This document shows, one piece after another, positions 1-20,720 of a DNA stretch of 64,000 nucleotides; position 1 is the stretch's first letter, and each line of letters opens with the position of its first letter. The stretch covers positions 888,530 to 952,529 of the forward strand of contig CP170456.1 in assembly GCA_047947105.1 (NCBI GenBank), written 5' to 3'. A model generated the notes under the pieces. It ran no database searches. It saw nothing but the letters and a program-made list of their open reading frames with translations, and was not told the DNA's origin. Made by a program: the position numbers and the translations under genes. Source of the DNA: Fluviicola sp. Lineage in GTDB: Bacteria > Bacteroidota > Bacteroidia > Flavobacteriales_D > Crocinitomicaceae.

Positions 1-695
1 TGCGTGTACGGGGTTCTTGAATAGGGTTGTGGCTCTTTCTTCATGGTTCGGCTAGCTTTTACTGGCTGGTACGAAAGTTTCCCGTTCTGTTGAGCGGCTT
101 GAGCTACTGTTTGAGTTGCTGTCAATCCTAACGTAATCGCTTCAACCGCTTCAAGCCCAGCAATACCGAAAAGTCCCGGATTCATCTGCTGGCTATAATC
201 TCCGAGCATTAAGCTTTGACCGCTAGAGGTATTTGCCCAAGAGCCATTCGCGAATTCCCAAAACCAAACAACTTTGTTATCGTAGAAATTATCTCCCATG
301 ACACCATTGTAAATCACGTCGATATGACCAAAGCCTCTATCACCTCCACGATTATCATGCGCAAAATAAATGATACCACTCTTCCCTGCGAAATCGGACA
401 GTTTCCAACGACCAGTTGGATGCGTCATCTTTTGTGGATATTTCAATTCTGTGAACAACCAATCAGCTAAGGCTGCCGCACTGGGCTGATACAATTTGCC
501 ACCCTTTTTTGCCGTTTTTCGGAATTTATCCGATTTTTTCAGTCGTGTCTCAGAAATACCTGATTTGATTAGCGCAAAGCTCAATCGCATTGCGCATTCG
601 TTATTCCCTTCTTTCTTCGGATAATTCGATTTGATTTTTTGAGGTGACGGAAAGGTATTTCCATGTGCTTCTGAGAAAGCTGATTTGTTTCTCAT
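1..695 (-). CDS. Tae4-family peptidoglycan amidase domain (gamma-D-glutamyl-mDAP endopeptidase type) at the N-terminus of a longer protein; the 3' end lies beyond the left window edge
   Basis: Absent from the ORF track because it runs off the window. Hand translation of the minus strand from ATG 695..693 stays open to nt 1 (checked codon by codon, no in-frame stop). Product: MRNKSAFSEAHGNTFPSPQKIKSNYPKKEGNNECAMRLSFALIKSGI...GIIYFAHDNRGGDRGFGHIDVIYNGVMGDNFYDNKVVWFWEF, followed by at least 80 more residues. Cys34 in 'NECAMRLSFAL' (nt 594-596), His124 in 'GHIDVIYNG' (nt 324-326) and Asp135 (nt 291-293, 11 residues after the His) reproduce the Cys-His-Asp core and spacing I recall for Tae4 ('NACPIRMSYVL' and 'GHVTLWNGSICSD'). 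Confidence 0.7.
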   Translation of the reverse strand, partial: MRNKSAFSEAHGNTFPSPQKIKSNYPKKEGNNECAMRLSFALIKSGISETRLKKSDKFRKTAKKGGKLYQPSAAALADWLFTELKYPQKMTHPTGRWKLSDFAGKSGIIYFAHDNRGGDRGFGHIDVIYNGVMGDNFYDNKVVWFWEFANGSWANTSSGQSLMLGDYSQQMNPGLFGIAGLEAVEAITLGLTATQTVAQAAQQNGKLSYQPVKASRTMKKEPQPYSRTPYT

Positions 696-744
696 GACCT
701 TTTGCTCTAAAACGAGAAGTCTGTTATTGTTCATAATGCTTGTA

Positions 745-1302
745 TTAGTGAATCGTAATTTTTGCTATCGCAATTTGCGTAAGTTGATTTTTGCTTGTTA
801 TTTGATATTCGTTTATTCCCAATCGGTGAAAGGCTCCTTTAAATTTTTCGGTTCCCAAAAGGTCCTGCATGGCTCGTTTACCTTCTTGATGATACATAGT
901 GATTGGAATTCTAAAAATTCGGCTTTGACCTCCTACAGAAAGTCGAATTTCACCTTGCTCAATACGCTTTTCATCTTTGGGCTCATAGCGGACGAGTAGC
1001 ATGAAGTGCCCCTTACCATCAGATCTTCGTTCAAAGATTCGTTCCTCTACCCGAATTCGATCTCCCATGTAGTAGGCACCTTCGAATTGAATAGGAATGA
1101 GAGGCAAAGCATTGTTCGTTCCGTCGCGGCAGACAACTCCAACAATGGGAAGGTAACGTACCTTTTCTGGAGGCCTGATGGAACTTCCTTTATTGTTTCT
1201 ACTTTGAAGAACTTCCATCTGATCCGGTGATAATTTAATGCTCGGCGGATCTTGCTGTTTCCGATTTTGTATGCGGCTTTCTATGTCGAGGAGCTTGCTC
1301 AT
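745..1302 (-). CDS. hypothetical protein, 185 aa, beta-rich, no signal peptide; operon member directly upstream of the Tae4-like gene
   Basis: Its ATG overlaps the stop of the upstream gene by 4 nt (1299..1302), indicating translational coupling. No motif recognised. The C-terminal two thirds alternate hydrophobic and polar residues ('GEIRLSVGGQSRIFRIPITMYH'). Confidence 0.6.
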   Translation of the reverse strand: MSKLLDIESRIQNRKQQDPPSIKLSPDQMEVLQSRNNKGSSIRPPEKVRYLPIVGVVCRDGTNNALPLIPIQFEGAYYMGDRIRVEERIFERRSDGKGHFMLLVRYEPKDEKRIEQGEIRLSVGGQSRIFRIPITMYHQEGKRAMQDLLGTEKFKGAFHRLGINEYQITSKNQLTQIAIAKITIH

Positions 1303-2291
1303 TCTTCAGTCGCTGTATTATCCTCTGATTTCACAATAATTTCTTCCTCGATTACTGCGTCTTTTATATCCGAATGGCTATCTGCTGTAGACGTAGTTTT
1401 CTTACTTTCTGCCAATTCATCTTCGGCAATGCTGTCCATTACCTCAAAATCCTCAGCATACTCCATTCCATCCATGGCAACCGATCGTTCATCAATAATA
1501 TCCTCTACTCGATCTTTTGCCAAGGCAACCGAACCTTTCGTTAAATCGCCATCAGCTTCATCAAAAATGGAATTCAATTCTACCTCACCTAGTTGGTAGG
1601 TTGTTAAGTTGTTCCGATCCGCTGCCAGTTGATCAAAAATGGCTTCATCTTTGGCCATTTTCTTTTCCAGCTCCTTTACACGCTCATCAGTATCGTCTGC
1701 TGGAGGATTGTTTTGCGCTGGAGCCACTTGTTGTCCCTCCGAATAATCTGCCAAATTGGCAAGACTTTTCTGCCCACTTAATACCGCCTGTAGATCTTTT
1801 GCGAACTGATCGTCTACCTCCACCTCATCTGCCATGGCGTCCACTTGAGGGGCATTGGATGAAGCGTTTTCTGACTCAGTAAAAATGGCATCATCTGAAG
1901 ACTCAAACACATCCGAGTATTGATTGTTTTCATCAAGTGGTTCCGAATCGTAAGCGTCGTTCATTGCCCTTGCATGCGAAGTAGAAGTATCGTGTAATTC
2001 ATCCGAATTTAAATCATCGGTATCATATGCTTTGGCCATTACGAAAGTTTCGCTAGACAGTCCCATGGTAAAGTCCTCTCCGTGGTCAAAAACTTCATCA
2101 TCAGTCATTTCAAAAGCATCTGTATATTCCAGGTCGGCCTCCATACCGATGCTCATATCATCATTATATGCTTTACCCATACTCATGGCCTCAGACCCCA
2201 CTTGTGTTTCATGTGGGATTTCTAGAGCTATGGCTCCTTTGGAATCGTAATGTGTTTTTCGAACGCCTGAATTTCTGTAATTACTGTTCAT
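1299..2291 (-). CDS. hyper-acidic, probably disordered protein, 330 aa
   Basis: Long ORF in the operon. My hand count gives about 85 D/E against about 23 K/R. There are no hydrophobic stretches. A K/D-A-Y-acidic motif recurs ('GKAYNDD', 'AKAYDTDD', 'NDAYDSE'). A central helical segment reads 'ERVKELEKKMAKDEAIFDQLAADRN'. Confidence 0.6.
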   Translation of the reverse strand: MNSNYRNSGVRKTHYDSKGAIALEIPHETQVGSEAMSMGKAYNDDMSIGMEADLEYTDAFEMTDDEVFDHGEDFTMGLSSETFVMAKAYDTDDLNSDELHDTSTSHARAMNDAYDSEPLDENNQYSDVFESSDDAIFTESENASSNAPQVDAMADEVEVDDQFAKDLQAVLSGQKSLANLADYSEGQQVAPAQNNPPADDTDERVKELEKKMAKDEAIFDQLAADRNNLTTYQLGEVELNSIFDEADGDLTKGSVALAKDRVEDIIDERSVAMDGMEYAEDFEVMDSIAEDELAESKKTTSTADSHSDIKDAVIEEEIIVKSEDNTATEE

Positions 2292-2306
2292 TCTATTCTC
2301 TTTTTC

Positions 2307-3080
2307 CTATTTAAGATTCGATCTTACTTTTATATTGAAGGCAGTATGTTCATCCAATTGTACTGTCAAATCATTCACTTCTTTAATCCTCGCGTTGGAT
2401 AATTCTATGACTAAAAAATCCTTTGAGGCTTCGATGACTTTCATTTCATCGTTATTCAATTTTGCCCGCAAGGCTTGAGATCCATCTATGGCGAGATTCT
2501 CCCCTTGAACGGCTAAAATATTTCGTCCTCGAATGGAACCTAATTGAGCTGCTTTCACGCGCGGTGGATGTTGTCCTCTCTGTGCTTTGTTGATGAGTCC
2601 AGCTAACTTTTTGAAGTCGATTTGTGAACTTCCTTTTTTCCCTTCTTCAGAGGAAGCAACGGGTTTGTTCACTTTCACATTCTTTTCTTTCAACTTCTTG
2701 ATGTCTTCGGCAGAACGAACTCCCATTCGATTCAATTGAATCTTGGTAGATTCATCAATCTCATCAATTTCATCAATGGTAATGTCGTCACCAGAGATGG
2801 GTTTCTTTGTGGTTTCGCGAATCTGCCGATCGGTAATGGACCCTAATGACAAGCTTATTTTAGAAGAACCAGAATCTCCGGTAGCAGCTGTTGTGAACCG
2901 AACGCCTCTTCCGTCATATTCAGGGAAAACGTTCAAGTCTAGGGAAACGTCTTTGACCGCATAAGACAACGGACTGTTTAGCCCTTTCACTGAGAGCGTT
3001 TCGCGAGCTTTATCCAACTCGAATACCAGCGAGTCGATAAAATCCTCCAATTGCCATGACTTGTTATTCTTTTTCGCCAT
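2307..3080 (-). CDS. hypothetical protein, 257 aa, three-part: N-terminal small beta module, acidic/basic linker with an HhH-like segment, C-terminal IPT/TIG-like beta-sandwich pattern
   Basis: The start overlaps the upstream gene by 17 nt. The N-terminus 'WQLEDFIDSLVFELDKARETL...YAVKDVSLDLNVFPEYDGRGVRFTTAATGDSGSSKISLSLGSI' resembles by eye the small trypsin-co-occurring (Trypco2-like) domains of conflict systems. The C-terminus 'PPRVKAAQLGSIRGRNILAVQGENLAIDGSQ...VIEASKDFLVIELSN' has an IPT-like pattern. Both assignments are weak. Confidence 0.55.
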   Translation of the reverse strand: MAKKNNKSWQLEDFIDSLVFELDKARETLSVKGLNSPLSYAVKDVSLDLNVFPEYDGRGVRFTTAATGDSGSSKISLSLGSITDRQIRETTKKPISGDDITIDEIDEIDESTKIQLNRMGVRSAEDIKKLKEKNVKVNKPVASSEEGKKGSSQIDFKKLAGLINKAQRGQHPPRVKAAQLGSIRGRNILAVQGENLAIDGSQALRAKLNNDEMKVIEASKDFLVIELSNARIKEVNDLTVQLDEHTAFNIKVRSNLK

Positions 3081-3369
3081 ACAGTTTGTAGAGCGGAGCT
3101 ACGGTCATTTTTAAGTTTTGTATAACCGGCATAAAGCTGGTTTCTATCTTCTGGGTGGGTGGCGCAGATCCAATGGTTACGCTACCATCGTCTTCGACTA
3201 AAACATCAAGTTCACAGGGAAAATCAAGGCGTAGTTCTTCTACTTTCATCGCTTCCCACAATTCAGAATCATTGGATTCGTTTGTGATCCCAGCGAGCAG
3301 CTCCACCATGAAGGAGAAAGGCGTTAAGGCCTCGTCAATTTCTTGATATTTCTCGTTATTTTCTTCCAA
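3064..3369 (-). CDS. hypothetical small acidic protein, 101 aa
   Basis: The start overlaps the upstream 61-aa gene by 14 nt and the stop overlaps the next gene. 'VEELRLDFPCELDVLVEDDGSVTIGSAPPTQKIETSFMPVIQNLKMTVAP' has the same strand, G/S loop, strand look as the N-terminus of the 257-aa protein. Confidence 0.5.
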   Translation of the reverse strand: MEENNEKYQEIDEALTPFSFMVELLAGITNESNDSELWEAMKVEELRLDFPCELDVLVEDDGSVTIGSAPPTQKIETSFMPVIQNLKMTVAPLYKLYGEKE

Positions 3370-3541
3370 CGACTTTTCGTTTTTTCTTGTAGTCCAAATC
3401 GACAGGGGTAGCGCGGACCTTTTTGTCCATCATCACTTCCATTCCATCGATAATAACACCTGTTTTGATGCCTTCTCCATCACTTGACATTGCTCCTGCA
3501 AGTCGATCTGATAAATCCGGAAATTTCGTTCTGTAACTCAT
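3356..3541 (-). CDS. hypothetical small protein, 61 aa, with a basic C-terminal tail (KKKRKVVGRK)
   Basis: ATGA start/stop overlap with the 692-aa gene (3538..3541). It sits in an otherwise gap-free operon. No homology recognised. Confidence 0.45.
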   Translation of the reverse strand: MSYRTKFPDLSDRLAGAMSSDGEGIKTGVIIDGMEVMMDKKVRATPVDLDYKKKRKVVGRK

Positions 3542-5616
3542 ATCTCATTGTTTGATTGAACTCCCACAAAGTGCGCTAGTTCTGGAATTGGAAACACCAC
3601 TTTTTCTTCTTCAAATCCTGCAATTGTTCCGTAAGGAGTAATGTTTGCAGTTTTTTTCAAAATGATTTCTCGAAGAACCATTTCTGGGTATACCCACAAA
3701 GCAGCTGCTTCTCCATCACGCCCTTTGTACTTTAAACCACTTCGGGCAGCTCGGTGTTGTTGCTTGATGAAGGCATCTGTTTTCAATGCTTCCAACTGAT
3801 CAATACTGAGTGATTCGCCTCCGATTGTCGGGAGCAAATCATTTAACACTTCAGGGCTTAGAATCAAGCCTGATTTCATCTTGCCCTCCATCTTCCTCGG
3901 TCTGGCTGGCTCCAAAAACTCTACCGTTTCCATTTGAGCATTGGCTCTTCGATCTGCTTCAATGGCATAGTAATACTTGCACTCAAATTCATAGCGTACC
4001 GTATCATTTGTGAAATCTGCTTGCCACACTTTGTGCCAGAAGGGACGGTGCAGTTCAATGTCATTTAGCGCCACAACGTGCTTTGATTCACCGATTCGGT
4101 CAAATGCGTATTCTGTAGCAACAGCAATAGGAATATCAATACAACTTCCGAACTTCTTATTGCGCTTTCCTTTCCAAAGCACCGCCAGATATAAATCATA
4201 AGATTCACCCGACACGAGGTCGTCTGCCAAATGCGCTGGAATTGTAGGGTGCATTTCAAAGATTCCTCCTCTTGAGCCTTGATGTCTTTGTCTGTGTCGA
4301 ATCACGACTTCACTCGAATCCTTGCGGCGCACAATAATTTCAAAAATCCCTCTGGGAATGTCTCGCGGTGTGTGGAGTTTTACAGGAATCTTCATCTCAA
4401 TTCCATAGCCATACACATAGTGTGTATCTCCATTCAGGATTGATTTCTCAATTTCTGCAACTTCGATACGAACAAGATTACTCTTCTGAAACTTTATTCG
4501 TTGGAAGTAAGAAGATTCAACCCCCATTTGATTTAGTAATCCCTGTACGTCCTTATCATCAACTCCTGGGTTCAACTTTTGGAGGGCATCTAGCTCATCT
4601 TTGTTGATCTGTGCTCCTATTTTTCCAAGTTTTGCCAAACCATCGGTTACAACACCTACCAATTTCATGATGGCTGTTGGGTCCATCATAGCTCCACTGT
4701 ATTGGAGGACACTCATTTGATTCAGCAGTCCTTGCACATCCTTATCATCAACTCCGGGATTGAGTTTTTGAAGTGCGTCAAGTTCGTCCTTATTGATCTG
4801 AGCCCCTATTTTGCCAAGTTTTGCCAAACCATCAGTAACTGCCCCCACGAGCGCCATTATGGTCATTGGATCCATCATTGCGCCGCTGTAGTTGCCAGAA
4901 CTTAATTGTTGTGCAGAAGCTTGTGTGGGTGTTTCTCCTCCTGAGACTCCCTTTAAAAGATCGATAACTTGCTGAAGTTTCTCTGGATCTGAAATCAAAT
5001 TGAGAATTTGTTGACCCAAACCGCCGCCAGTACCGCCAGAAGTTCCGCTATTAGAACCCGTACCACCGTCCGTTGAAGTTTCGGTTGTTCCACCAGAGCT
5101 CCCACCATTGCCTCCACCGGAAATCAATTGTCCCACGGCAGGCAACACTTTAGGGAGAAATTTCATCACCTTGTCTAGGAACATTGCTTCTGACATTCCT
5201 GACTCCTTGTATTGAAAGGGAACGCTATGTATTTCTTTATTTAACGAATTTGTTTCCATTGCGAATTGAATTGAAGGAAGTGGTTGTGAGGAGACTCCAG
5301 GCATTGTCCTCACTATTGAGGATATTGCAGGCCCGGTTCCGTCTGCCTCACGGTAACTTACAATTTGTACGTATGCGTTTTCAAGAGAGAAGACTTCTTG
5401 CGGAACTCTGAATCGAATGCGTCCCAATTTCGGGGCTGGAATGGGTCCGTACATTTTACTTACGAACGACTTCCGTTCCAGTACGGGAACACCATAACTT
5501 CGATAGGTTCTTCGGTCACCAATCATTATACGGAAGTAAGAGTTGCCCCCTAGATCAGCCTGAAACTCTTGATGACCGTTCGCCGCTCCTTGATATTTCA
5601 AAAACGCTAACGCCAT
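3538..5616 (-). CDS. hypothetical multidomain protein, 692 aa: N-terminal about 160-aa domain, Gly/Ser/Thr linker, two tandem 59-aa helical repeats, about 330-aa C-terminal domain
   Basis: Uninterrupted 2.1 kb ORF whose start lies 6 nt after the upstream stop. The linker 'SGGGNGGSSGGTTETSTDGGTGSNSGTSGGTGGG' maps to about nt 5017-5124. Repeats are described under the repeat feature. No P-loop, signal peptide or known catalytic motif seen. Confidence 0.7.
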   Translation of the reverse strand: MALAFLKYQGAANGHQEFQADLGGNSYFRIMIGDRRTYRSYGVPVLERKSFVSKMYGPIPAPKLGRIRFRVPQEVFSLENAYVQIVSYREADGTGPAISSIVRTMPGVSSQPLPSIQFAMETNSLNKEIHSVPFQYKESGMSEAMFLDKVMKFLPKVLPAVGQLISGGGNGGSSGGTTETSTDGGTGSNSGTSGGTGGGLGQQILNLISDPEKLQQVIDLLKGVSGGETPTQASAQQLSSGNYSGAMMDPMTIMALVGAVTDGLAKLGKIGAQINKDELDALQKLNPGVDDKDVQGLLNQMSVLQYSGAMMDPTAIMKLVGVVTDGLAKLGKIGAQINKDELDALQKLNPGVDDKDVQGLLNQMGVESSYFQRIKFQKSNLVRIEVAEIEKSILNGDTHYVYGYGIEMKIPVKLHTPRDIPRGIFEIIVRRKDSSEVVIRHRQRHQGSRGGIFEMHPTIPAHLADDLVSGESYDLYLAVLWKGKRNKKFGSCIDIPIAVATEYAFDRIGESKHVVALNDIELHRPFWHKVWQADFTNDTVRYEFECKYYYAIEADRRANAQMETVEFLEPARPRKMEGKMKSGLILSPEVLNDLLPTIGGESLSIDQLEALKTDAFIKQQHRAARSGLKYKGRDGEAAALWVYPEMVLREIILKKTANITPYGTIAGFEEEKVVFPIPELAHFVGVQSNNEI
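4525..4890 (-). repeat. in-frame tandem duplication (2 x 59 aa, period 63 aa / 189 nt) inside the 692-aa gene
   Basis: Copy 1 (nt 4714-4890): YSGAMMDPMTIMALVGAVTDGLAKLGKIGAQINKDELDALQKLNPGVDDKDVQGLLNQM. Copy 2 (nt 4525-4701): YSGAMMDPTAIMKLVGVVTDGLAKLGKIGAQINKDELDALQKLNPGVDDKDVQGLLNQM. The copies differ at 4 of 59 residues. The DNA copies differ at many synonymous sites, e.g. attcagcagtccttgcac versus atttagtaatccctgtac. Confidence 0.9.
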
Positions 5617-5622
5617 TCAGAT

Positions 5623-6648
5623 TTACGTTTTTGGTTTTGAACCAGCTGGATTAGACGCATTCGTATGCGTCGCAATTTCCGTTTCGCTTTCGATCTTATA
5701 GATGTCTACGAATTTGTCCAATTCGAAATAATCTGTGGAGAAAATCAACTCGACATTACCCGTAAGTTTTGCTGCGAGTTCATCTTTTGTATTACTCTTC
5801 GCTGAGGATACGCTCACCGAAGTGGACCGTTTAGAACTACTGCGTCCTACCGATGGCCCGCCAAAGATAGAACCAATCAATCCTCCGCTTGCTTTTGCAT
5901 AACCTCCGGATGAACTACTGTTTTTGTTCATTGCCTTGTCCTGGAAGTTCGCATTCGTCTCCGATTTAAAGTCAAACTGAACTCCTGCTTTGATTGTACC
6001 TTTGTCAACCACCATTCGGGTAACTCCCATGAGGATAATGTTCTGCAATGCTTTACGGTGTTCTTTGGCCAATTTCAGTTTCGCATCCATAATTGCGGCT
6101 TTCACTTCGTTGTCCTCCATGTCCACCGGTTCCCCCGTCTTGTTGGTTAATTTTGCACCGTCATCATCGAATGACATATTGAAGTCGTCATTGGAATCTG
6201 CTAGTTCGCCAAAAGCATCTTCGTCCGATACTTGTTTCACAAATTGCGCTACAGATTTCGAAGCTTCCTTCATCAACTTGATATAGTTGTCGGTTTGCTC
6301 CTTCATTACGGCCATATTTGCATCGAAAACGCCACTTACCAAGTCCTTTACAAACTGTGGGAAATTGACCGTATCTGTAAGTTCATCGAAAGCTTCTACT
6401 CCACGACCGATATCGTGTTGGTGTCTTCTTTGATCTATGAGGTCACTCGCTCTGTCTGCAGTCTGAGATCCTCTCTTTTTTCGCTGCTGCTCTGAAAGTC
6501 GCTTGGCGTTGGCAAGTACCATGTCCTTATACGTTGACATTTGATCTGCCTTCGACATTGCCTGGAACGAGCTACTTCTCGCTAAAACCTCTCGAGCTTC
6601 CTCTCGCGCCAGTTGCTTGATTTGCTCGTTTGATAATTCTTCTGCCAT
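5623..6648 (-). CDS. hypothetical protein, 341 aa: N-terminal charged helical region, central helical domain, Ser/Gly-rich segment, short C-terminal beta module
   Basis: Long ORF in the operon. Segments: 'EELSNEQIKQLAREEAREVLA', 'NFPQFVKDLVSGVFDANMAVMKEQTDNYIKLMKEASKSVAQFVKQV', 'SSSSGGYAKASGGLIGSIFGGPSVGRSSSKRSTSVSVSS', 'LTGNVELIFSTDYFELDKF'. No family recognised. Confidence 0.65.
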   Translation of the reverse strand: MAEELSNEQIKQLAREEAREVLARSSSFQAMSKADQMSTYKDMVLANAKRLSEQQRKKRGSQTADRASDLIDQRRHQHDIGRGVEAFDELTDTVNFPQFVKDLVSGVFDANMAVMKEQTDNYIKLMKEASKSVAQFVKQVSDEDAFGELADSNDDFNMSFDDDGAKLTNKTGEPVDMEDNEVKAAIMDAKLKLAKEHRKALQNIILMGVTRMVVDKGTIKAGVQFDFKSETNANFQDKAMNKNSSSSGGYAKASGGLIGSIFGGPSVGRSSSKRSTSVSVSSAKSNTKDELAAKLTGNVELIFSTDYFELDKFVDIYKIESETEIATHTNASNPAGSKPKT

Positions 6649-6704
6649 GTTTCTTAGTTTTTTGTTAGAAATTGAATTTGATTACGTGCCTTTCGGCAGT
6701 GGAA

Positions 6705-8261
6705 TTACATATCCCAATCTTCAAATTCTTCCTCGGCAGCAGCTAATTCAGCTCGGGGTGATACAGGTCCGTCAGATGACTCTTTTGATCCCTCTTGTCC
6801 CAATGCAATGATGTATGCTTCACATTTCACAATGAAGTTCGTGAATTCGGTTTTTGTGATTGTTGATTCGTTAAACGTTGAGATAATTTGGAAGAGGTTA
6901 TATCCTTCTACAGCAGCTGTTTTGTATGCCGTAATATTCGGAGATGTTCCAAATTTAGATTGGTGCAACATATCAATCACTGACCACACGTTTTGTGTTC
7001 TTCCCGGAGCCACTTGATTGATTACGCCTGGCTGACTCATGATTTCAAATGCGTCCTGTAAATGGTTGTACATTTCAGTAGTTTGAATATGCGCCATTCC
7101 TGTAAAGAACGATGTCAGATTGTACTGAATTTCGCGAATCAATTGAACAATTGGCAGTTTGGAAACAAAATCTTGGTTGTTCGAAGTCTCTGTCTTTGTG
7201 ATATAAGCAACCACTTCTTCCATTAGTGCGTGCCACAATCTTGTGAACGAATCGTTTACAATGGTACCTTGAAGTAGCTCTGCGTCCCCAAGGTTCAATA
7301 CACGCTTGTACAACATACCGCGTTCTTCACTGCTTGTTCTTTCTTCCAGTAATTTGTAGTAACGATACATTCTGCTTTCTGCTACTGGATCTGTTATATA
7401 GATACTTCCGCGCGCCCACTCTAATATCAAAGCTTCAGCCAAATCGAATACGCCTAATTGCTCGCCAAGTACATAGATGTAATTTACAGCTCCAGCTCCC
7501 AAAATGTTTTTTGGAAGTATTCCTTGCTCTCCGGCAGAGTCAAATAAGTCCACCGAGAAATCCCAGGTATTCTTACTGCCTTTAACACGAATTTGATCGA
7601 TTGGATCAATTCCTCCTTGATCTACCTTTATCGCGTAATCGAGAGCAAGCGCAAAGTATTCATCAAAATCCTGATCATTGATAGCACTTTCTACATCAAG
7701 TGTTGCTGTTGGAATCGATAAGTTCAAGGATTTCATGTAATCGATCATTGATTCGATCATTTTATCCGAGACACTATCACGATCTACCTCTGCTTTTGTC
7801 TTGTCGAGGTATGCAATGATAAAACGACGGTAAGGACCTTCTTCAGACACTTTATCGTACAGAGCCAAAATTGGAGCCACAGCTTCCCCATCGGTTATTG
7901 GAACAGGAGCATCCATTGCCAATTGAGCAATGTCCTCAACCATATCTGTATCTGAAGAATCAATTCCTTTCGAATCCAATACCTCAACTACCAGGTTTTG
8001 ATAAAACTCTTCTACTAACGTTGCCAAATGGCGTAAAACAGCATTGTAGATACCATTTTCGTCTGTGATGTTTACATTTTCAGTATTGAACGCATAATAC
8101 AAACATGCAGCGTACAATTGCGGGTCTGAAAGTAACTTTCGCTCCAACAGTGAGAGACTCGTTGTGTTCAAACGGTGATTTACATTGGTAATTACACCTG
8201 TTATTCCTTGTTGTGCAATGAAATCTTGAATTTCTTGCTCAATTGTTGTTGTCGTTGACAT
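6705..8261 (-). CDS. hypothetical protein, 518 aa, mostly helical, acidic C-terminal tail (AAAEEEFEDWDM)
   Basis: 1.55 kb ORF in the operon. No signal peptide, TM helix or NTPase motif. No family recognised. Confidence 0.65.
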   Translation of the reverse strand: MSTTTTIEQEIQDFIAQQGITGVITNVNHRLNTTSLSLLERKLLSDPQLYAACLYYAFNTENVNITDENGIYNAVLRHLATLVEEFYQNLVVEVLDSKGIDSSDTDMVEDIAQLAMDAPVPITDGEAVAPILALYDKVSEEGPYRRFIIAYLDKTKAEVDRDSVSDKMIESMIDYMKSLNLSIPTATLDVESAINDQDFDEYFALALDYAIKVDQGGIDPIDQIRVKGSKNTWDFSVDLFDSAGEQGILPKNILGAGAVNYIYVLGEQLGVFDLAEALILEWARGSIYITDPVAESRMYRYYKLLEERTSSEERGMLYKRVLNLGDAELLQGTIVNDSFTRLWHALMEEVVAYITKTETSNNQDFVSKLPIVQLIREIQYNLTSFFTGMAHIQTTEMYNHLQDAFEIMSQPGVINQVAPGRTQNVWSVIDMLHQSKFGTSPNITAYKTAAVEGYNLFQIISTFNESTITKTEFTNFIVKCEAYIIALGQEGSKESSDGPVSPRAELAAAEEEFEDWDM

Positions 8262-8280
8262 CTTCCTTTAATTTTTAAGA

Positions 8281-8553
8281 TTATGAGTTATCTGATCCTG
8301 TTGAGGCTCCACCACCGTACGAATCAATACCTGTGTAGATATTGTCATTGTCATCAGTGACACTTTGCTTTAGTAGCGTGATCGCTTTTTTCGCAAGTGG
8401 ATCAATTTTCTTTGATACTGTATCCAACTGGAGAACATTCGTAGGTCTCGCAAAAATAGATGGATCTAAAATGGTTGGTAAATACTCATTGGCTGCACTC
8501 GTGTATGAGGTAAGGCCGCTAAGATTCGCCGTGCTCGATAAATAATTTGCCAT
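8281..8553 (-). CDS. hypothetical small protein, 90 aa, with a Gly/Ser-rich C-terminus
   Basis: Starts 11 nt after the S8 protease stop and ends 19 nt before the next start. The sequence ends 'GIDSYGGGASTGSDNS'. Confidence 0.5.
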   Translation of the reverse strand: MANYLSSTANLSGLTSYTSAANEYLPTILDPSIFARPTNVLQLDTVSKKIDPLAKKAITLLKQSVTDDNDNIYTGIDSYGGGASTGSDNS

Positions 8554-8564
8554 ATCTGTTTGTT

Positions 8565-9866
8565 TTAATTGTTGAGTTTATATTCGAGTAATTTGATTGC
8601 ATCTTTTAAGTTCACCACTCCGTAGCCCATTTTGAAATCCTTCATGCGAGTCCCTACTTTATCTGAAGTGTGCTTCAGAATATATTTTACGTGGTGATCT
8701 TTTAATTTTCTTCCTTTCTGAAGTGCAAATGATTTGAGCATTGCAACTGCACCGGCAACAAAAGGAGCCGCGTGAGAGGTACCGGTGGAATATGCGTATT
8801 TCCCATCCAGATAAGTGCTGTAAATCTCAGTTCCCGGAGCCACAAAATCCACTTGATCGCCATAGGTTGAGAAGGGTGCTACTTTGTAAAAGGACTGATC
8901 TGTTGCACCCACGCTGATTACATGCGGCAATCCAGACGGAAAATAGATAGAGTTTTTACCATCATTCCCAGTCGCCGCAACAATGGTTACCCCTTTTTCT
9001 TTGGCATAATTGACCACATCCTCATGCGGTAAGCCTCCACCTTCATGGACTATTCCAAGACTCATGTTTATTACGTCTGCTCCATTATCAACAGCCCATT
9101 TGATTCCGGCATTTATGTTTCCTACGAGCCCAGCCCCTACTTTAGATTCGCCCTTCTTCATAGCGCCAAGCACCCGAATAGGAATGATTTTACAATTAGG
9201 AACAACACCTTGTGGCATATTTTTACCTTTCCCACATATGATTCCTGCGACGTGTGTGCCATGTCCTACTTCGTCTTCTGGGTCTGGATCATATCCGAGG
9301 TAATCACCTACGAACTGATTCGCTCCTGAAATGATATTTACAAAATCAAATCCCGGTAGCATACAGTGTTCCAGTTCTGGATGGTTGGTGTCTACACCGG
9401 TATCTAGCACTGCAATTTTTACGTCTGTATGACCCGTTGTTTTTTGAAGCGTTTCGTCCAGACCTATAGCTTTTCTAGCACTGTCCAACCCATGACTACT
9501 TCTACTCTTGGATTCGCTTACTCTCGGAAGATCACTTGAGATAATATGCCCAGGCTTTACAGAAATAATATTCGGCACGAGACGCAGTTTCTGCACAAGA
9601 CCAGAAGGAATTTCTTTGGTGTTCAAGAGAATGAATCTGAAATGAGTATCAAAATTTGCTTTCGTTTCCTCAGGTGTCCATTGCCCTCCCTTTTTTTTGT
9701 ATTCGGTTGTAACACTAAACTCAAGACCATAGTTGTCGAAAATCTCATCCACTTCTGGTGAAAAAGTTTTTACAGCAGCTGCCGAACCAGTTGCGACATC
9801 CCCCCAAAACGGGAGACTTCTAACTGCTTCAGTTGGTTTGCTCTGGACAACGAGATGGTGCTTCAT
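8565..9866 (-). CDS. S8 family subtilisin-like serine protease, apparently cytoplasmic, with an about 140-aa N-terminal extension
   Basis: Asp/His/Ser triad motifs are present in the canonical order: 'VLDTGVDTNHPEL', 'HGTHVAGIICG', 'GTSHAAPFVAGAVAML'. An oxyanion-region 'ATGNDG' is also present. The N-terminus 'MKHHLVVQSKPTEAVRSLPFWGD' is not a signal peptide. It is the first gene of the operon. Confidence 0.9.
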   Translation of the reverse strand: MKHHLVVQSKPTEAVRSLPFWGDVATGSAAAVKTFSPEVDEIFDNYGLEFSVTTEYKKKGGQWTPEETKANFDTHFRFILLNTKEIPSGLVQKLRLVPNIISVKPGHIISSDLPRVSESKSRSSHGLDSARKAIGLDETLQKTTGHTDVKIAVLDTGVDTNHPELEHCMLPGFDFVNIISGANQFVGDYLGYDPDPEDEVGHGTHVAGIICGKGKNMPQGVVPNCKIIPIRVLGAMKKGESKVGAGLVGNINAGIKWAVDNGADVINMSLGIVHEGGGLPHEDVVNYAKEKGVTIVAATGNDGKNSIYFPSGLPHVISVGATDQSFYKVAPFSTYGDQVDFVAPGTEIYSTYLDGKYAYSTGTSHAAPFVAGAVAMLKSFALQKGRKLKDHHVKYILKHTSDKVGTRMKDFKMGYGVVNLKDAIKLLEYKLNN

Positions 9867-9971
9867 TGAATAAGTAGTTATGACCTAAATGATTGATTGG
9901 ATCATACAGGTGCGAAACAATATTACACATCAGCTACAACGGTGTCAATACTGAAGAAAAACGAATGTTAT

Positions 9972-10018
9972 AAATACTTAAAGATTTTAAGTATTTCTAC
10001 TTACCTAAATGGGTAAGT
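9972..10018. promoter_or_regulatory. two adjacent inverted repeats in the 408-bp divergent intergenic region (candidate operator or leader hairpins)
   Basis: IR1 (9972..9996): AAATACTTAAA-gat-TTTAAGTATTT, perfect 11-bp arms. IR2 (9999..10018): ACTTACC-taaatg-GGTAAGT, 7-bp arms, followed by TTTTT on the plus strand. They lie about 105-150 nt upstream of the S8 protease start. Confidence 0.3.
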
Positions 10019-10274
10019 TTTTAGGATGGAATTTCACCCATCGATTTTATAATTTTCAAAATTTATTCCTAAAAATGAATGCCTCCAACTAAAAAAAATA
10101 GCAAAAAATACATTTCAAGTATTTATGCGCAATCTTACTGCACAAAATACCCAATCTTGACGGAAAACACATAAACCACTCACTGTCTTGCACTTACACG
10201 TAGAGCTGTATAAAAATGGAGCTAAACAGTATTTGTTAAGGACCTTACTTCCTCCAGTTTATTAAATTTAGCTC

Positions 10275-11594
10275 ATGAAACAAACCTATCTTATCCTCTG
10301 CGCTTTCTGTTTTGCGATAACAAGTTCTTGCTCCTCTGAATCCTCCGAAATCGAGTCCCAAAAAAATGACACTACCAAAAAAGGGAAAGCAAGTCAACTC
10401 GGCACTCAAACCGTAGCTCCCATCATTAACATGAGTGAGTTTTCCAAAATGTCTAAAGAAGACTTACGATTGGCTAGAAATACCGTTTTCGCTAAGTATG
10501 GACGTGTTTTTAAATCGAAAGATTTGAAAGATCATTTCGCGAAGCAAAGTTGGTATCATGAGAACCCAGCCTTCAAGCAAAGTGACATGAAACAGCAGGA
10601 TATTGACATTGTGAACCTTATCCAGCGATGGGAGGAGAAAACAGAGATTTTACTGCAAGAGCGTGCAGATATAACTGGAAATGGCAGCTACGAGGATTGC
10701 TTTGTGCTCTACAATAAAAACAAAGGTACCTACTCCATCATTGTAAACGATTTCTCACAAGAGTTCGACCACTTTTGGGGACAGGCCGATGATAGCCAAG
10801 GACTTCCGTCGGATTGGATAGAGATTCAAGCCCAAATTATTGATATCGACAGCGAAGACTTTAAACAGGAGATTCTGGTTAGTCAACGCTATGCTGATTG
10901 GGAAGATCCGGGTACACATAACATAATTGTGGCATTCAACGATGGTGTAAAAGTAACAGAACTTAGCAGTACTGATTACGACGCAGGGACTTTAGAGATT
11001 GACGGCGAAGGAACGGTAGTTATGAATTATTCAAATTGTCCTCCGCACACCAAGTATTTCAAACTCAATCGTGGCAAAGTAGAGCAATTTGATGAAAAAA
11101 TAGGCCCGACACCAAAAGGCGGTTGTGCTGCATGCTTTTCTGGCGATGCACAAGTAGCCACTTCAATGACCGACACTAAAGCATTATCGGCCTTACAACG
11201 TGGAGACTTGGTTTTAACCTACAATCCTGTGTCGACAAAATATGAGCAAACAGAAGTAGAACGCATTTTATCAGTATTTCATGATAATCTCTATGAGGTT
11301 AAGGTTGGTAAATCAGTTATTACGGTAACTGAAGACCATCCATTTCTGTCAGAATCAGGTTGGTGTTCGATCGCTCCAGAAAAAACAATGCAGCGATATG
11401 GATATGAAAATGTGCAATTGCTCACGGCAGGATCAAAACTTGTACACATTAATGGCAACTCTGTTTTCGTGGAGTCGATCGAACCAAAATTGGAAGGAAT
11501 AATGACGTATACCATTTCAACCCTTAAAAACGGGCAAAACTTTATCGTTAACGGAGTGGTTGTGGGAACGGAAACAGTTACTCCTTACTTCTAG
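10275..11594 (+). CDS. lipoprotein with a YARHG domain and a C-terminal Hint (intein/hedgehog-type) domain
   Basis: Lipobox 'AITSSC'. YARHG-type segment 'LRLARNTVFAKYGRVFKSKDLKDHFAKQSWYHENP' (about nt 10446-10565). Hint blocks: 'CFSGDAQVAT' (Cys287, nt 11133), 'VTEDHPF' (TxxH) and terminal 'NFIVNGVVVGTE', ending about 7 aa before the stop. Confidence 0.75.
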   Translation: MKQTYLILCAFCFAITSSCSSESSEIESQKNDTTKKGKASQLGTQTVAPIINMSEFSKMSKEDLRLARNTVFAKYGRVFKSKDLKDHFAKQSWYHENPAFKQSDMKQQDIDIVNLIQRWEEKTEILLQERADITGNGSYEDCFVLYNKNKGTYSIIVNDFSQEFDHFWGQADDSQGLPSDWIEIQAQIIDIDSEDFKQEILVSQRYADWEDPGTHNIIVAFNDGVKVTELSSTDYDAGTLEIDGEGTVVMNYSNCPPHTKYFKLNRGKVEQFDEKIGPTPKGGCAACFSGDAQVATSMTDTKALSALQRGDLVLTYNPVSTKYEQTEVERILSVFHDNLYEVKVGKSVITVTEDHPFLSESGWCSIAPEKTMQRYGYENVQLLTAGSKLVHINGNSVFVESIEPKLEGIMTYTISTLKNGQNFIVNGVVVGTETVTPYF

Positions 11595-18262: not shown

Positions 18263-19027
18263 ATGTCGACACAACATTTAGATAACATTATAAACGCTTT
18301 CGAACCCATTCATTTAGAAGAAATGAGTGCAACGGAATTGATGAATCGCGTCGACACAAAATTTGTCATTACCCTAAATCAATTGCTACTAGTGCTGCCG
18401 GAATTACAGAGGCACTACAAAATTTTGGAAGTAGAAGGTTTGCGACTTCCTCAGTATGAAAGCGAGTATTATGATAACGATACCTTAGACTTCTACATCG
18501 ACCACCACCGCAAGAAAGTGGATCGCTTCAAGGTTCGTTTTAGGAAATATGTAGAGTCCGACCTTTCTTTTCTGGAAGTAAAACATAAAAGTAAGGGCAG
18601 AACGGACAAACAACGAATCATGGTGCAGGACTTGCCTGGCGTCATGAACAAGGAACACTTCGATTTTGTAAAAAGTACGGGAGTGCAAAAAGAGAACCTG
18701 AATTATATTCTAACCAATAAATTTCACCGCATTACGCTTGTTGGAAAAAATCATGTAGAGCGACTGACATTCGACCTAAACCTCGAGTTCAATGGCAATA
18801 ACACTACAAAAATGATGAACAACCTGGTCATTGCAGAACTAAAACAAGAACGGCTTTCACGGCAGTCGCCATTTTATAAAGTGGTGAAAAGCATGATGAT
18901 CCGCCCGTATCGAATTAGTAAATACTGTATTGGCGTCATAGAACTTTATGGTAAGGAGAACGTAAAATACAATCGATTTAAAAAGAAATTGCTCAAACTA
19001 AATAAACTACAAGCCAATGTTGCTTAA
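18263..19027 (+). CDS. VTC (polyphosphate polymerase-like) domain protein
   Basis: 'RVDTKFVI', 'YYDN', 'RFKVRFRKY' and 'FLEVKHKSKGRTDKQR' match the triphosphate-tunnel VTC domain pattern. Confidence 0.65.
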   Translation: MSTQHLDNIINAFEPIHLEEMSATELMNRVDTKFVITLNQLLLVLPELQRHYKILEVEGLRLPQYESEYYDNDTLDFYIDHHRKKVDRFKVRFRKYVESDLSFLEVKHKSKGRTDKQRIMVQDLPGVMNKEHFDFVKSTGVQKENLNYILTNKFHRITLVGKNHVERLTFDLNLEFNGNNTTKMMNNLVIAELKQERLSRQSPFYKVVKSMMIRPYRISKYCIGVIELYGKENVKYNRFKKKLLKLNKLQANVA

Positions 19028-19679
19028 AGCCGCACCCGAATCGTCGATGGAGGAATTACTAAACATTACCTGGTTCGATGATGACCTTTACAAGTTACTA
19101 TTCAGACTAGGAGTTAACGTTATTTTCCTCACAATAATCATTCGTTACTTGTACTACCCTAGTAAAAGACGAAAGGATTATTTGTTCACCTATTACCTTA
19201 TCGGATTCATTACCTTTTTTCTTTGTTTCGCGCTCAAAAAGTTCAACATTGACACGGGAATGGGACTTGGACTCTTTGCCATTTTTGGAATTATAAGATA
19301 CCGAACCGATGCCATTGAAATTAAGGAGATGACTTATCTCTTCCTGGTGATTGGCGTCAGTGTCGTAAACTCCTTAGCCTCCAACAAAATTAGTATAGCG
19401 GAAATGGCCGTTATCAATATTTTCATTGTAGCAATGACCTTCGGTTTGGAGCGCCTTTGGTTAGTGAAGCACGAAACGCGAAAAACGATTACGTACGAAC
19501 GAATCGATCTTATCCGCCCAGAAAGCTATGAGGAAATGAAGGCAGACCTGGAAGAACGTACAGGACTTTCCATAAACCGTGTGGAAGTTGGTAAAATTAA
19601 CTTCTTGGATGACACCGCTCAGGTAAGAATTTATTACTTTGACGACGATCAGGCTTTTTCTGATTACAGTACTAATTAA
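19017..19679 (+). CDS. DUF4956 domain membrane protein
   Basis: Overlaps the VTC gene by 11 nt. Three or four TM helices followed by a soluble tail. This is the usual partner of bacterial VTC genes. Confidence 0.55.
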   Translation: MLLKAAPESSMEELLNITWFDDDLYKLLFRLGVNVIFLTIIIRYLYYPSKRRKDYLFTYYLIGFITFFLCFALKKFNIDTGMGLGLFAIFGIIRYRTDAIEIKEMTYLFLVIGVSVVNSLASNKISIAEMAVINIFIVAMTFGLERLWLVKHETRKTITYERIDLIRPESYEEMKADLEERTGLSINRVEVGKINFLDDTAQVRIYYFDDDQAFSDYSTN

Positions 19680-19688
19680 TCGTCGCCG

Positions 19689-20720
19689 ATGAAGTCCATT
19701 CGCTGGGCACTTATTCCTTTTGCTTTGCTGTATGGTATTGCTACCAGCTTTAGAAACTGGTTGTTCAATATTGGATGGAAAAAATCATACGAAATTCCCG
19801 GAAAGTCTATCACCGTAGGTAATCTTTCTGTGGGTGGAACAGGGAAGTCGCCATTGGTAAATTACTTAATTGAGCATTTTCTTAAAGAAGAGTTCCCAGT
19901 GGCTACGCTAAGTCGTGGGTATGGCAGAAAAACCAAAGGACTCCTAACCGCTGGAAAAGAAGATACCGCAGCTTCCATTGGGGACGAACCGCTCCAGTAC
20001 TTGCATCGCTATCAAAATCAAATTTCAGTGCACGTTTCCGAAGCACGAAAAGCAGGTGTAGATCACATTCGAAGGACTTTAAACGAAAAAACCATCATAC
20101 TCCTTGATGATGCCTTCCAGCACAGGAAAGTAAAAGCGGGATTGAATATCCTTGTAACAGAATTTCATCGCCCTTACTCTCGTGACTTTCTCTTACCTGT
20201 CGGTAGACTACGAGAATCGAAATCTGGAGCCAACAGGGCTGATCTGATTATTGTCTCCAAATGTCCGGGCAACGTTTCAGAGTCGGAAAAACAGAAGCTT
20301 TCTATGGAATTAGCCCAAAACGAGCAGCCTGTTTTCTTTTCATCTATAAAGTATGGCGCATTGACACAGATTTCAGGAACACAGCCTAATACCGTCAAAA
20401 ACATACTCCTGGTCACTGGAATTGGAAATCCCACCCCACTTTTAGAACACTTGAAATTGAACTATAACGTTATACACGTAAAGTTTCCCGATCACCACGC
20501 GTTTACTAGGGTTGACATCGATACCATTCATCAAAAATTTAATACTTTTGCTAGCCGTGATAAAATCATTGTTACAACCGAAAAAGATTTCATGCGATTG
20601 CAGCAATTCAATGAAATTTCAGAAGGTTCTGTTCCTTGGTTTTATCAACCTATAAATATTATGATCAACGAAGAATCGAAACTTAAGAAGCTACTAAACG
20701 ACTATGTTAGAAAAAATTAA
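19689..20720 (+). CDS. lpxK: tetraacyldisaccharide 4'-kinase
   Basis: 'VGNLSVGGTGKSP' P-loop, 'LSRGYGR' and 'ILLDDAFQH'. Confidence 0.85.
   Translation: MKSIRWALIPFALLYGIATSFRNWLFNIGWKKSYEIPGKSITVGNLSVGGTGKSPLVNYLIEHFLKEEFPVATLSRGYGRKTKGLLTAGKEDTAASIGDEPLQYLHRYQNQISVHVSEARKAGVDHIRRTLNEKTIILLDDAFQHRKVKAGLNILVTEFHRPYSRDFLLPVGRLRESKSGANRADLIIVSKCPGNVSESEKQKLSMELAQNEQPVFFSSIKYGALTQISGTQPNTVKNILLVTGIGNPTPLLEHLKLNYNVIHVKFPDHHAFTRVDIDTIHQKFNTFASRDKIIVTTEKDFMRLQQFNEISEGSVPWFYQPINIMINEESKLKKLLNDYVRKN

Follow-up and report, generated by a model that had tools for sequence, protein, structure and literature searches.

This study concerns an operon at the left end of a 64,000-nucleotide (nt) stretch of DNA from Fluviicola sp. 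(contig CP170456.1, positions 888,530 to 952,529 of the forward strand), which was analysed as a whole and is referred to here as the window. Positions 1-9866 carry 11 open reading frames (ORFs), all on the minus strand, of which ten are complete (745-9866) and one runs off the left edge. Judged by comparison with its relatives, this region holds the first eleven genes of an operon of roughly 14, and the operon family, on the same kind of evidence, consists of horizontally mobile, multi-protein effector systems that were previously undescribed. Genes were named g01 to g11 in order of transcription from the S8 protease end, i.e. from right to left. Core proteins are those conserved in order across the family, slots are the three variable positions between or after them, and payloads are the products of slot 3, most of which start with a short leader (aa, amino acids).

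8565-9866, minus strand: g01, S8 subtilase of 433 aa (Pfam Peptidase_S8, E=4.4e-55), no signal peptide
8281-8553, minus strand: g02, slot-1 protein of 90 aa, minimal occupant of the position between S8 and g03, with close Crocinitomicaceae relatives only
6705-8261, minus strand: g03, core protein of 518 aa, all alpha-helical, no known relative
5623-6648, minus strand: g04, core protein of 341 aa, the best conserved core protein and the first of the g04-g07-g08 triad
3538-5616, minus strand: g05, core protein of 692 aa, modelled by AlphaFold2 as an N-terminal beta-sandwich (residues 1-107), a helical middle (108-370) and a C-terminal beta-rich domain (371-689)
3356-3541, minus strand: g06, bare slot-2 module of 61 aa, with motif VIIDGMEVMMDKKVRATPVDL at 3395-3457
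3064-3369, minus strand: g07, core protein of 101 aa with weak Pepco/Trypco2 likeness
2307-3080, minus strand: g08, core protein of 257 aa; N-domain (~5-95) putatively Trypco2/Pepco-like, helix-hairpin-helix segment at ~100-145, C-domain (~175-257) IPT/TIG-like
1299-2291, minus strand: g09, first payload-slot gene, 330 aa, very acidic, leader degenerate in Fluviicola
745-1302, minus strand: g10, payload-slot protein of 185 aa, conserved in Crocinitomicaceae, leader SKLLDIESRI at 1270-1299
1-734, minus strand: g11, Tae4-type peptidoglycan amidase, cut by the window edge (Pfam Tae4 PF14113, E=5.5e-16), leader NRLLVLEQKV at 696-725
9867-10274, no strand: upstream intergenic region of 408 bp, AT-richer (GC 0.36-0.39 against 0.38-0.47 within the operon)

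The tight packing of the eleven ORFs, which had been predicted from the sequence alone, was confirmed from the ORF list. Calculated from the coordinates, the junctions from g01 to g10 are +11, +19, +56 and +6 nt, overlaps of 4, 14 and 17 nt, +15 nt and an overlap of 4 nt, exactly as originally given. The last junction had been put at +49 nt, but extension of the g11 translation upstream in frame revealed an ATG at position 734 that gives MNNNRLLVLEQKVMRNKS..., the form of the N-terminus conserved among relatives. Because the start of g11 belongs at this ATG, the gap between g10 and g11 is +10 nt. The upstream region was AT-rich as predicted, and contained a sigma-70-like match on the minus strand (9948-9919, TTGACA-17-TAATAT, 10/12 positions), which is a consensus match only, Bacteroidota promoters differing from that consensus. 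One weak terminator-like hairpin was found inside the operon on the minus strand.

Pfam, NCBIfam, PADLOC and PHROGs recognised only the S8 protease among the ten complete proteins, and Tae4 in the g11 fragment, where an amidase of this type had been expected. The predicted lack of membrane helices was borne out by a sliding-window scan, in which the highest 19-residue hydrophobicity among the window proteins was 1.52; in the same scan no small membrane-spanning holin was found. No signal peptide or ATPase was found in any operon gene product. The nine proteins between S8 and Tae4 had been called unrecognisable, which holds for direct family searches but not for g08 and g07, both of which appear to be remote Trypco2/Pepco relatives.

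The operon had also been called an orphan, and this was incorrect: 58 loci share its gene set and gene order. A search of 5.8 billion protein clusters with g03 gave 38 homologues, many of them cyanobacterial and one, from a Fluviicola sp. metagenome-assembled genome (MAG), 100% identical. Around the g03 homologue of Baaleninema simplex, the gene order of S8, g04, g05, g06, g07 and g08 is preserved, each of these having a homologue there and that of g06 forming the C-terminus of a larger protein. The 58 loci came from a scan of one genome per species. Their ORFs, predicted by a simple script that may have misjudged some starts or small genes, were compared by BLAST. The ordered core S8-g03-g04-g05-g07-g08 was present in essentially all sufficiently long loci, and 54 of the 58 operons included S8, the remaining four loci being short or cut contigs. 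Hosts of the core are Crocinitomicaceae, Saprospiraceae, about 40 mostly filamentous cyanobacteria, Planctomycetota, a Trueperaceae MAG (Deinococcota), Rhodobacterales and a Pseudomonadales MAG, i.e. at least five phyla. The genes do co-occur outside the source genome, and on this count the reading of them as one system was not refuted.

Matches to g04 were found on three mobilizable cyanobacterial plasmids of ~193 kb, from Tolypothrix and Microchaete. In two close relatives the operon is flanked by entirely different genes, and in one of them it ends at an insertion sequence (IS) element, from which it was taken to be a mobile island. Searches of the available literature by keywords and by protein accessions returned no prior description of the system.

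Exact-sequence look-ups of window proteins, made to extend the contig to the left, gave no record, and the sequence beyond the window edge was inferred instead from CP121319. This relative, the closest complete one (proteins 79-96% identical), has an operon that encodes, in order, S8 and proteins of 90, 518, 341, 691, 62, 116, 257, 330, 185, 409 (Tae4), 730, 313 and 310 aa. The Tae4 gene is thus not the last one, as had been supposed, since three further genes follow it. The 730-aa protein next to Tae4 contains GH108 and PG_binding_3 (Pfam). A Fluviicola taffensis-like contig has, after g10, just one 1215-aa protein that combines VanY/M15_4, phage lysozyme, GH108, PG_binding_3 and Amidase_2 domains. 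Taken together, these downstream genes indicate that several alternative payloads degrade the wall, Tae4 among them. At the very end of the CP121319 operon, the gene at L062:19328-20260 encodes 310 aa with a Lys/Ala/Pro/Thr-rich, histone-H1-like C-terminal half and a leader-like start (MAQIRNLNLQVEK).

Some features of individual cyanobacterial loci were also recorded. On a plasmid of Tolypothrix sp. PCC 7712 (NZ_CP063787.1; L061, 8580-19798) the system is plasmid-borne and an alpha/beta hydrolase gene lies just 5' of S8, and in Baaleninema a metallophosphoesterase gene occupies the same position (L001:6161-7273). Both enzymes belong to classes reported as protease-associated effectors; as recurrent upstream effectors they were rejected, each being next to S8 in one cyanobacterial locus and not recurring. 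In Symploca (L034), IS605 OrfB/TnpB-like genes (OrfB_IS605, Cas12f1-like_TNB) are found at 6756-8087 and 18665-19921, among slot-1 and payload genes, and four slot-1 genes encoding SBBP propellers are arranged in tandem.

Each of the three variable slots is marked by its own motif. Slot 1, between S8 and g03, is elsewhere occupied by proteins of 275-850 aa with lectin or peptidoglycan-binding domains and the motif DNWxxIxxLF, which is present in one to three copies per protein, mostly C-terminal after a coiled-coil region. Of the 54 slot-1 proteins 34 carried this DNW motif, which was absent from all core, downstream and slot-2 proteins. The motif is lacking in g02, which was rejected as one of its bearers. 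Slot 2 is defined by the g06 module ...EPILLNGMKVIFDQ...PVxL (LLNGMKVIFD…PVxL; pattern [LIVM][LIVMF][DNE]G[ML][KRE]V...), which in the 58 loci was present only between g05 and g07. The module is a bare protein of ~60 aa in Bacteroidota, the end or middle of 246-1178-aa proteins in cyanobacteria, and a fusion to the end of g05 in one Phaeobacter locus. In the Fluviicola operon all that remains of slots 1 and 2 is one small bare protein each, g02 and g06 respectively.

In slot 3, after g08, reading of the N-termini showed that nearly every protein, in every phylum, starts with the consensus (P)(P/T)(S/N)N-N-R-L-L-A-L-E-Q-E-L (median start residue 9), followed by a Ser/Pro/Arg/Gln-rich stretch. 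The strict leader pattern was detected in 53/95 downstream proteins but in none of 306 core, 54 slot-1, 26 slot-2 and 32 upstream proteins. It also occurred in 9/346 other proteins, eight of which are downstream payload genes missed by the operon walk. A MAFFT alignment of 65 otherwise unrelated proteins gave the majority consensus NRLLxLExxL, and positions left free by the search pattern were conserved as well. Within the 64-kb window the strict leader was present at g11 only, with a looser form in g10 and one other loose match inside an unrelated ORF near 17769. We infer that the variable proteins dock on the core through their motifs.

Slot 3 of Fluviicola contains g09, g10 and Tae4, with further wall hydrolases in the closest relative. 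The g09 family has 34 members downstream of g08 (300-1082 aa), and its cyanobacterial members have a clear NRLLxLE-type leader. Across the loci the leader was joined to about 15 different toxin or hydrolase Pfam families, including Peptidase_C70 (5), GH108 (3), phage lysozyme (2), Tae4 (2) and VanY/M15 (2), as well as Ntox11, patatin, Anthrax_toxA, Amidase_2, PAD, Aspzincin_M35 and EndoU. The proteins of slots 1 and 2 carry SBBP beta-propellers, PG_binding_1/2, Laminin_G_3, Toxin_R_bind_N, OAA lectin, ricin B, beta/gamma-crystallin and sialidase N-domains, and slot proteins with Ntox11 and a Tse2-type ADP-ribosyltransferase were also found.

The gene maps showed no immunity genes between payload genes; consecutive downstream genes carry the leader, with no small interleaved genes. 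In CP121319 another leader-bearing hydrolase gene starts 55 nt after the Tae4 gene, and no signal peptide or Pfam immunity-family match was found between or after them. Pfam and NCBIfam detected no secretion-system domains in core, payload or slot proteins, the N-termini of the accessory proteins lack the hydrophobicity of a signal peptide, and in Pfam searches no NTPase was encoded in any locus examined. The full-length relative of g11 (409 aa) has Tae4 (E=1.5e-16) and a C-terminal half without a Pfam match; a type IX secretion C-terminal domain, which could have explained export of the amidase, was not seen, Tae4 being the only Pfam domain of this protein.

In the g11 fragment a hydrophobic helix, LFGIAGLEAVEAITLGLTA, follows the Tae4 domain at residues ~175-193 (hydrophobicity 1.52). 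The full-length relative (L003:17525-18751) has a domain of ~200 aa without a Pfam match C-terminal to Tae4 and the helix, and a more distant one (L005) consists of the Tae4 domain alone (182 aa). Separately, several leader-bearing cyanobacterial payloads have one strongly hydrophobic C-terminal helix (19-residue values 2.1-2.9), as if tail-anchored or membrane-acting. Payloads with such a C-terminal helix are located at:

L013:13766-14425
L039:14890-16665
L041:16076-17482
L023:17217-18764
L034:20016-21467

In the core, the S8 protease (g01) has a conserved N-terminal extension of ~130 aa ahead of the catalytic domain, for which there was no Pfam match. Identity across the 58 loci was 46-89%, and residues D155, H202, N267 and S364 were invariant in 54/54 homologues; on these residues the protease is predicted to be active. 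The best NCBIfam match was the mycosin model of the type VII secretion system (T7SS), at 195 bits against a cut-off of 279, and the protein also matched phrog_3677 in PHROGs.

The AlphaFold2 model of g03 is all-alpha with 25 helices (predicted local distance difference test score, pLDDT, 79). Searches for structural relatives gave a best E of 0.77 with Foldseek against the PDB, and nothing in a profile search against PDB sequences. By eye, g04 has a helical N-terminus and a beta-rich C-terminus; its identity is 80-96% within Bacteroidota and 30-49% across phyla, and neither a Pfam scan nor a profile search of PDB sequences detected relatives. Relaxed Pfam scans of 58 members gave no recurrent match for the g03, g04 and g05 families. 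None of these three proteins matched a known machine, by profile and Pfam searches and, for g03 and g05, by structure, which agrees with the original prediction.

The middle of g05 (108-370) comprises ~260 residues of partly hydrophobic helices, modelled with low confidence between two confident beta domains, and the N-terminal MALA is invariant. Foldseek returned only generic Ig, FN3, macroglobulin or arrestin-like matches for g05 in the PDB, and likewise only generic beta-sandwiches in BFVD. An aerolysin-like match (5zu4, E=9e-4, probability 0.38) was too weak and was not used. When the search for g05 homologues was repeated with its own alignment, the same 18 proteins were recovered and no depth was added. 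A nearly exact tandem duplication of a helical segment of ~58 aa (YSGAMMDP...LNPGVDDKDVQGLLNQM) was noted at residues ~243-365 of g05, also at low AlphaFold2 confidence; it is present in Crocinitomicaceae and one Saprospiraceae homologue, and single or absent in cyanobacteria.

Hydrophobicity scans found the central region of g05 to be borderline hydrophobic in 10/53 homologues, one S8 and two g03 homologues just passed the cut-off, and no membrane-like segments were detected in the g04, g07 and g08 families. By hhalign there was no internal paralogy among the core families, except that g07 aligned with the wider g08 profile. A shell of the HK97 fold, as in encapsulin-type compartments loaded by targeting peptides, was also considered. 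Because the models of g03 (all-alpha) and g05 (beta-sandwich/disordered/beta-rich) differ from it, these proteins are not HK97-like, and no Pfam encapsulin match was found.

Among 1.84 billion representatives phmmer found 267 relatives of g08, many of which share residues 5-132 only. While g08 itself had no Pfam match, 87 relatives included nine that matched Trypco2 (best E=2.3e-6), ten TIG and three HHH_5, and the Trypco2 stretch of these relatives falls in the region shared with g08. From these domain matches g08 is read as a Trypco2-like domain followed by helix-hairpin-helix (HhH) and IPT/TIG. A stretch LGSIxDxQI is conserved in g08. The g08-family profile gave generic HhH and Ig matches at most against PDB sequences. 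For g07, alignment with the g08 superfamily profile had an hhalign probability of 40% (E=2.9e-4, g07 10-79 on g08 3-75), and its 24 members included two weak Trypco2 matches (E=0.066) and one weak Pepco match (PF24393, E=0.082), suggesting that g07 is probably Pepco/Trypco2-like. Thus g08, and more weakly g07, appear to be remote relatives of Trypco2 and Pepco, through a link that is transitive. Trypco1/2 were defined from conflict systems, as proteins with a trypsin-like peptidase encoded next door (Kaur et al. 2020, PMC7159879), and, under the name Pepco, were lately reported to form 9-10-mer beta-barrels that become pores once a partner protease removes a C-terminal tail (Evans et al. 2025, bioRxiv 10.1101/2025.11.14.688446).

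Variants of the operon bear on the association of this module with a protease. Two metagenome contigs of 72% GC (L064 and L065) have a rearranged order: 718 aa, g04-like, g07-like, g08-like, S8, g03-like, 352 aa, g04-like, 282 aa and g04-like. This variant has three g04 paralogues and no detectable g05, and no NRLLxLE leader was seen in the first residues of the listed proteins. The S8 of L064, which is 34% identical to g01 over the full length, lies directly 3' of the g08-like gene, and a further contig (P0131) has the same rearranged order with S8 in the same position. In two other loci (L067:6499-10621 and L068) a bare triad of g04-like, g07-like and g08-like genes precedes a split rhomboid protease gene, S8, g03 and g05 being absent; the g08-like protein of L067 is extended by TIG, CARDB and SBP_bac_5 domains. 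From the rearranged and bare-triad variants, the g04-g07-g08 triad with a serine protease therefore looks like an older unit, to which g03, g05 and the three motif-addressed slots seem to have been added later.

Tentatively, and as a reading that is short of likely, these results suggest a protease-gated pore or lysis platform with motif-attached effectors, in which S8 would license a Pepco-like pore. The payloads would be synthesised in the cytoplasm and stay attached to the core by their motifs until a trigger lets S8 cut. By analogy with Pepco, cleavage would turn the g04-g07-g08 module into a membrane pore, and it would also free the leader-tethered payloads. Because such a pore would act like a holin, signal-less peptidoglycan hydrolases, including Tae4 in Fluviicola, would reach the wall and the cell would lyse. 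The end point may be either lysis itself (altruistic death, abortive infection) or the release of lectin-tagged toxin complexes against neighbours. Self-killing would fit the cytoplasmic location of all parts, the absence of immunity genes, the Pepco precedent and easy transfer between phyla with different envelopes, while release against neighbours would fit the extracellular-type binding modules and several payload families that also occur among injected toxins. Lysis could serve as the release step, so the two do not rule each other out.

Both functional readings offered originally survive. That of a carrier for a cell-wall effector gained from the payload leader (53/95 downstream against 0/306 core) and the polymorphic toxin repertoire, and that of a protease-gated lysis module from the remote Pepco/Trypco2 kinship of g08 and g07 and the S8 catalytic residues (54/54). 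The accompanying idea of a self-assembling or scaffolded structure is not directly supported by these results.

Several points weigh against the protease-gated platform. The Trypco2/Pepco link is transitive, with g08 lacking a Pfam match and g07 aligning by hhalign at 40% only. The Pepco-like domain of g08 precedes two folded domains and not a short tail, and in the Fluviicola operon S8 and g07-g08 are five genes apart. Cleavage of these proteins by S8, and their insertion into a membrane, are steps that the proposal supplies by inference. Pfam found no sensor such as a STAND NTPase in the loci examined, so that nothing points to a trigger. Modules that bind carbohydrate or peptidoglycan are easier to reconcile with an extracellular target than with self-killing, as are the Peptidase_C70/AvrRpt2, Ntox11, Anthrax_toxA and PAD payloads; Ntox11 is known from the cargo of Photorhabdus virulence cassettes (PVC) and extracellular contractile injection systems (eCIS) (PMC3482391). 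Finally, a lysis module has no obvious need for four or five wall-cleaving domains in one 1215-aa protein.

A somewhat more doubtful, though still credible, explanation is an extracellular, lectin-targeted polymorphic toxin complex with a new delivery route, following a logic like that of Streptomyces umbrella particles or Tc toxins. The core would be a soluble carrier, the DNW-docked proteins of slot 1 would bind sugars or peptidoglycan of the target, and toxins would dock via the leader or the g06 module. S8 would mature the complex, the hydrophobic middle of g05 and/or g07/g08 would form a translocation pore in the target membrane, and exit would be by lysis of the producer or through an unlinked exporter. 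The slot-1 domains are typical of extracellular binding (PG_binding_1/2, Laminin_G_3, SBBP, ricin B, OAA lectin, Toxin_R_bind_N, sialidase N-domain) and the payloads belong to injected or secreted toxin families (Tae4, Peptidase_C70, Ntox11, patatin, Anthrax_toxA, PAD, Tse2 ADP-ribosyltransferase), with several different toxins per locus and turnover between close relatives. There are also precedents for the combination of a protease-family protein, lectins and a polymorphic toxin (PMC11062931) and for an S8-activated diffusible toxin (PMC13556192). However, no signal peptides, exporter, ATPase or core membrane protein were found in the 58 loci, across very different envelopes, and immunity genes were lacking even beside peptidoglycan hydrolases. 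Moreover, the Fluviicola version has no binding domain (g02 is 90 aa and g06 61 aa), and the g03 and g05 models showed no structural likeness to known carriers by Foldseek.

It is possible, although rather unlikely, that the family represents a new delivery or release system, with a core unrelated to known secretion, injection or particle machines, powered by proteolysis without an ATPase and using a three-part addressing code. The code, which shares this grade of doubt, would assign the DNW motif to target-binding proteins, the g06 module to one toxin class and the NRLLxLE leader to a second.

A developmental or wall-remodelling role (programmed death of sacrificial cells, filament fragmentation), as opposed to conflict, is improbable. 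It would fit the predominance of loci in filamentous cyanobacteria and other bacteria of complex life style, and the recurrence of peptidoglycan hydrolases and peptidoglycan-binding domains. On the other hand, the patchy distribution, carriage on plasmids, IS elements nearby and rapid turnover of payloads, including the classic toxins EndoU, ADP-ribosyltransferase, patatin and C70, are features usual in conflict systems and not in housekeeping development.

Derivation from a prophage, tailocin, eCIS or type VI secretion system (T6SS), with the unrecognised proteins as diverged sheath-less tail, baseplate, capsid or ejection proteins and the hydrolases as virion lysins, is largely refuted and very improbable: although the multi-domain lysins (lysozyme, GH108, M15 and amidase) resemble virion-associated ones, S8 matches phrog_3677 and protease-cut N-terminal targeting peptides recall the capsid-targeting sequences of phage T4, the nine unrecognised proteins had no PHROG match, tblastn found no g04 in 50,697 phage genomes and none was found in IMG/VR viral contigs, Pfam and NCBIfam detected no terminase, portal, sheath, tube, baseplate or AAA protein, g03 is all-alpha without a structural match, g05 is a generic beta-sandwich even against BFVD, and ordinary chromosomal genes, different ones in different relatives, flank the operon. 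A phage origin was rejected on the PHROGs, phage-genome and IMG/VR searches. The predicted absence of T6SS, eCIS and phage hallmarks was upheld by Pfam, NCBIfam and PHROGs for the ten complete operon proteins. T6SS genes (TssB/C, Hcp, VgrG, ClpV) or PAAR/VgrG fusions were found neither in these proteins (Pfam, NCBIfam) nor in the loci of relatives (Pfam), and for the sheath, tube, baseplate or AAA+ proteins of eCIS, PVC or tailocins there was no Pfam, NCBIfam or PHROG match, the folds of g03 and g05 being unlike such parts.

Divergent from the operon, positions 10275-11594 (plus strand) encode a 439-aa protein with a lipoprotein-like N-terminus (MKQTYLILCAFCFAITSSC) and, by eye, a Hint-like C-terminal region.

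Although the system spans at least five phyla and is found in many cyanobacteria of blooms and mats and in freshwater Bacteroidota, it is missing from PADLOC, Pfam, NCBIfam, PHROGs and the searchable literature. It suggests a way to hold and deploy a changeable toxin arsenal by docking motifs and a protease switch, without an ATPase, secretion signal or immunity genes, and offers a hypothesis for how signal-less hydrolases of the Tae4 and endolysin types reach the cell wall. The leader, the DNW motif and the g06 module are three testable sequence rules. The Pepco/Trypco2 link would extend this pore module from two-gene defence pairs to a large modular platform. Were the system a new means of delivery, the leader could serve as a portable tag with which any protein might be loaded, and g03, g04 and g05 would be new structural families.

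Judged against each of its closest known counterparts (protease-Pepco modules, polymorphic toxin systems, umbrella particles, S8-activated polymorphic toxins and holin-endolysin cassettes), the system fails defining features. Protease-Pepco modules (PMC7159879; bioRxiv 10.1101/2025.11.14.688446) likewise encode a serine protease with small proteins, of which g07 and g08 would be remote counterparts, are all cytoplasmic, lack an immunity gene, are enriched in cyanobacteria and multicellular bacteria, and share peptidoglycan-binding domains; the proposed logic, in which protease cleavage licenses a pore, would also be the same. In the Fluviicola family, however, the protease is an S8 without a fused sensor NTPase, and no sensor partner (STAND NTPase, vWA-MoxR) was found in the loci. 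The putative Pepco-like domain of g08, whose homology to Pepco is remote and transitive, shares its protein with HhH and IPT/TIG domains. Furthermore, g03, g04 and g05 have no counterpart in those modules, and neither do arrays of toxins and binding proteins attached via three motifs.

Polymorphic toxin systems (Zhang et al. 2012, PMC3482391) also combine a constant addressing element with many toxin domains and a fast payload turnover, and the families Ntox11, EndoU, Tae4, C70 and Tse2-type ADP-ribosyltransferase are shared. They differ in that the element is here a leader of ~10 residues and not a trafficking domain, the toxins are separate proteins and not C-terminal cassettes of one giant, and there are no immunity genes and no Sec, type V secretion (T5SS), T6SS, T7SS or PVC route.

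In Streptomyces umbrella particles (PMC11062931) variable lectins, a protease-family component and polymorphic toxins are clustered as well, and specificity is expected from the lectins. Unlike these particles, the present system showed no homology, ALF repeats, UmbC-like coiled-coil stalk or UmbA lectin-trypsin fusion (Pfam); its S8 has an intact catalytic site, its lectins are on separate proteins, secretion signals are absent and the host phyla are different. The S8-Ntox35 system of Firmicutes (PMC13556192) resembles it in encoding an S8 peptidase with a polymorphic toxin, and there S8 removes an N-terminal element to activate the toxin. That system is secreted, two-component and Gram-positive with a BetaH domain, whereas here there is a multi-protein core, no signal peptides and a different N-terminal element.

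With the Tae4/Tai4 pairs of T6SS the likeness is the Tae4-family Cys-His amidase domain of g11, but no T6SS structural gene or Tai4-like gene is in the operon, and g11 has the leader of this system and an extra C-terminal half. As for holin-endolysin cassettes and lysis-dependent release (tailocins, colicins, type 10 secretion), the common feature is that signal-less hydrolases need a pore in the inner membrane. Here there is no small membrane-spanning holin, and the candidate pore would instead be a soluble, Pepco-like module gated by the protease.

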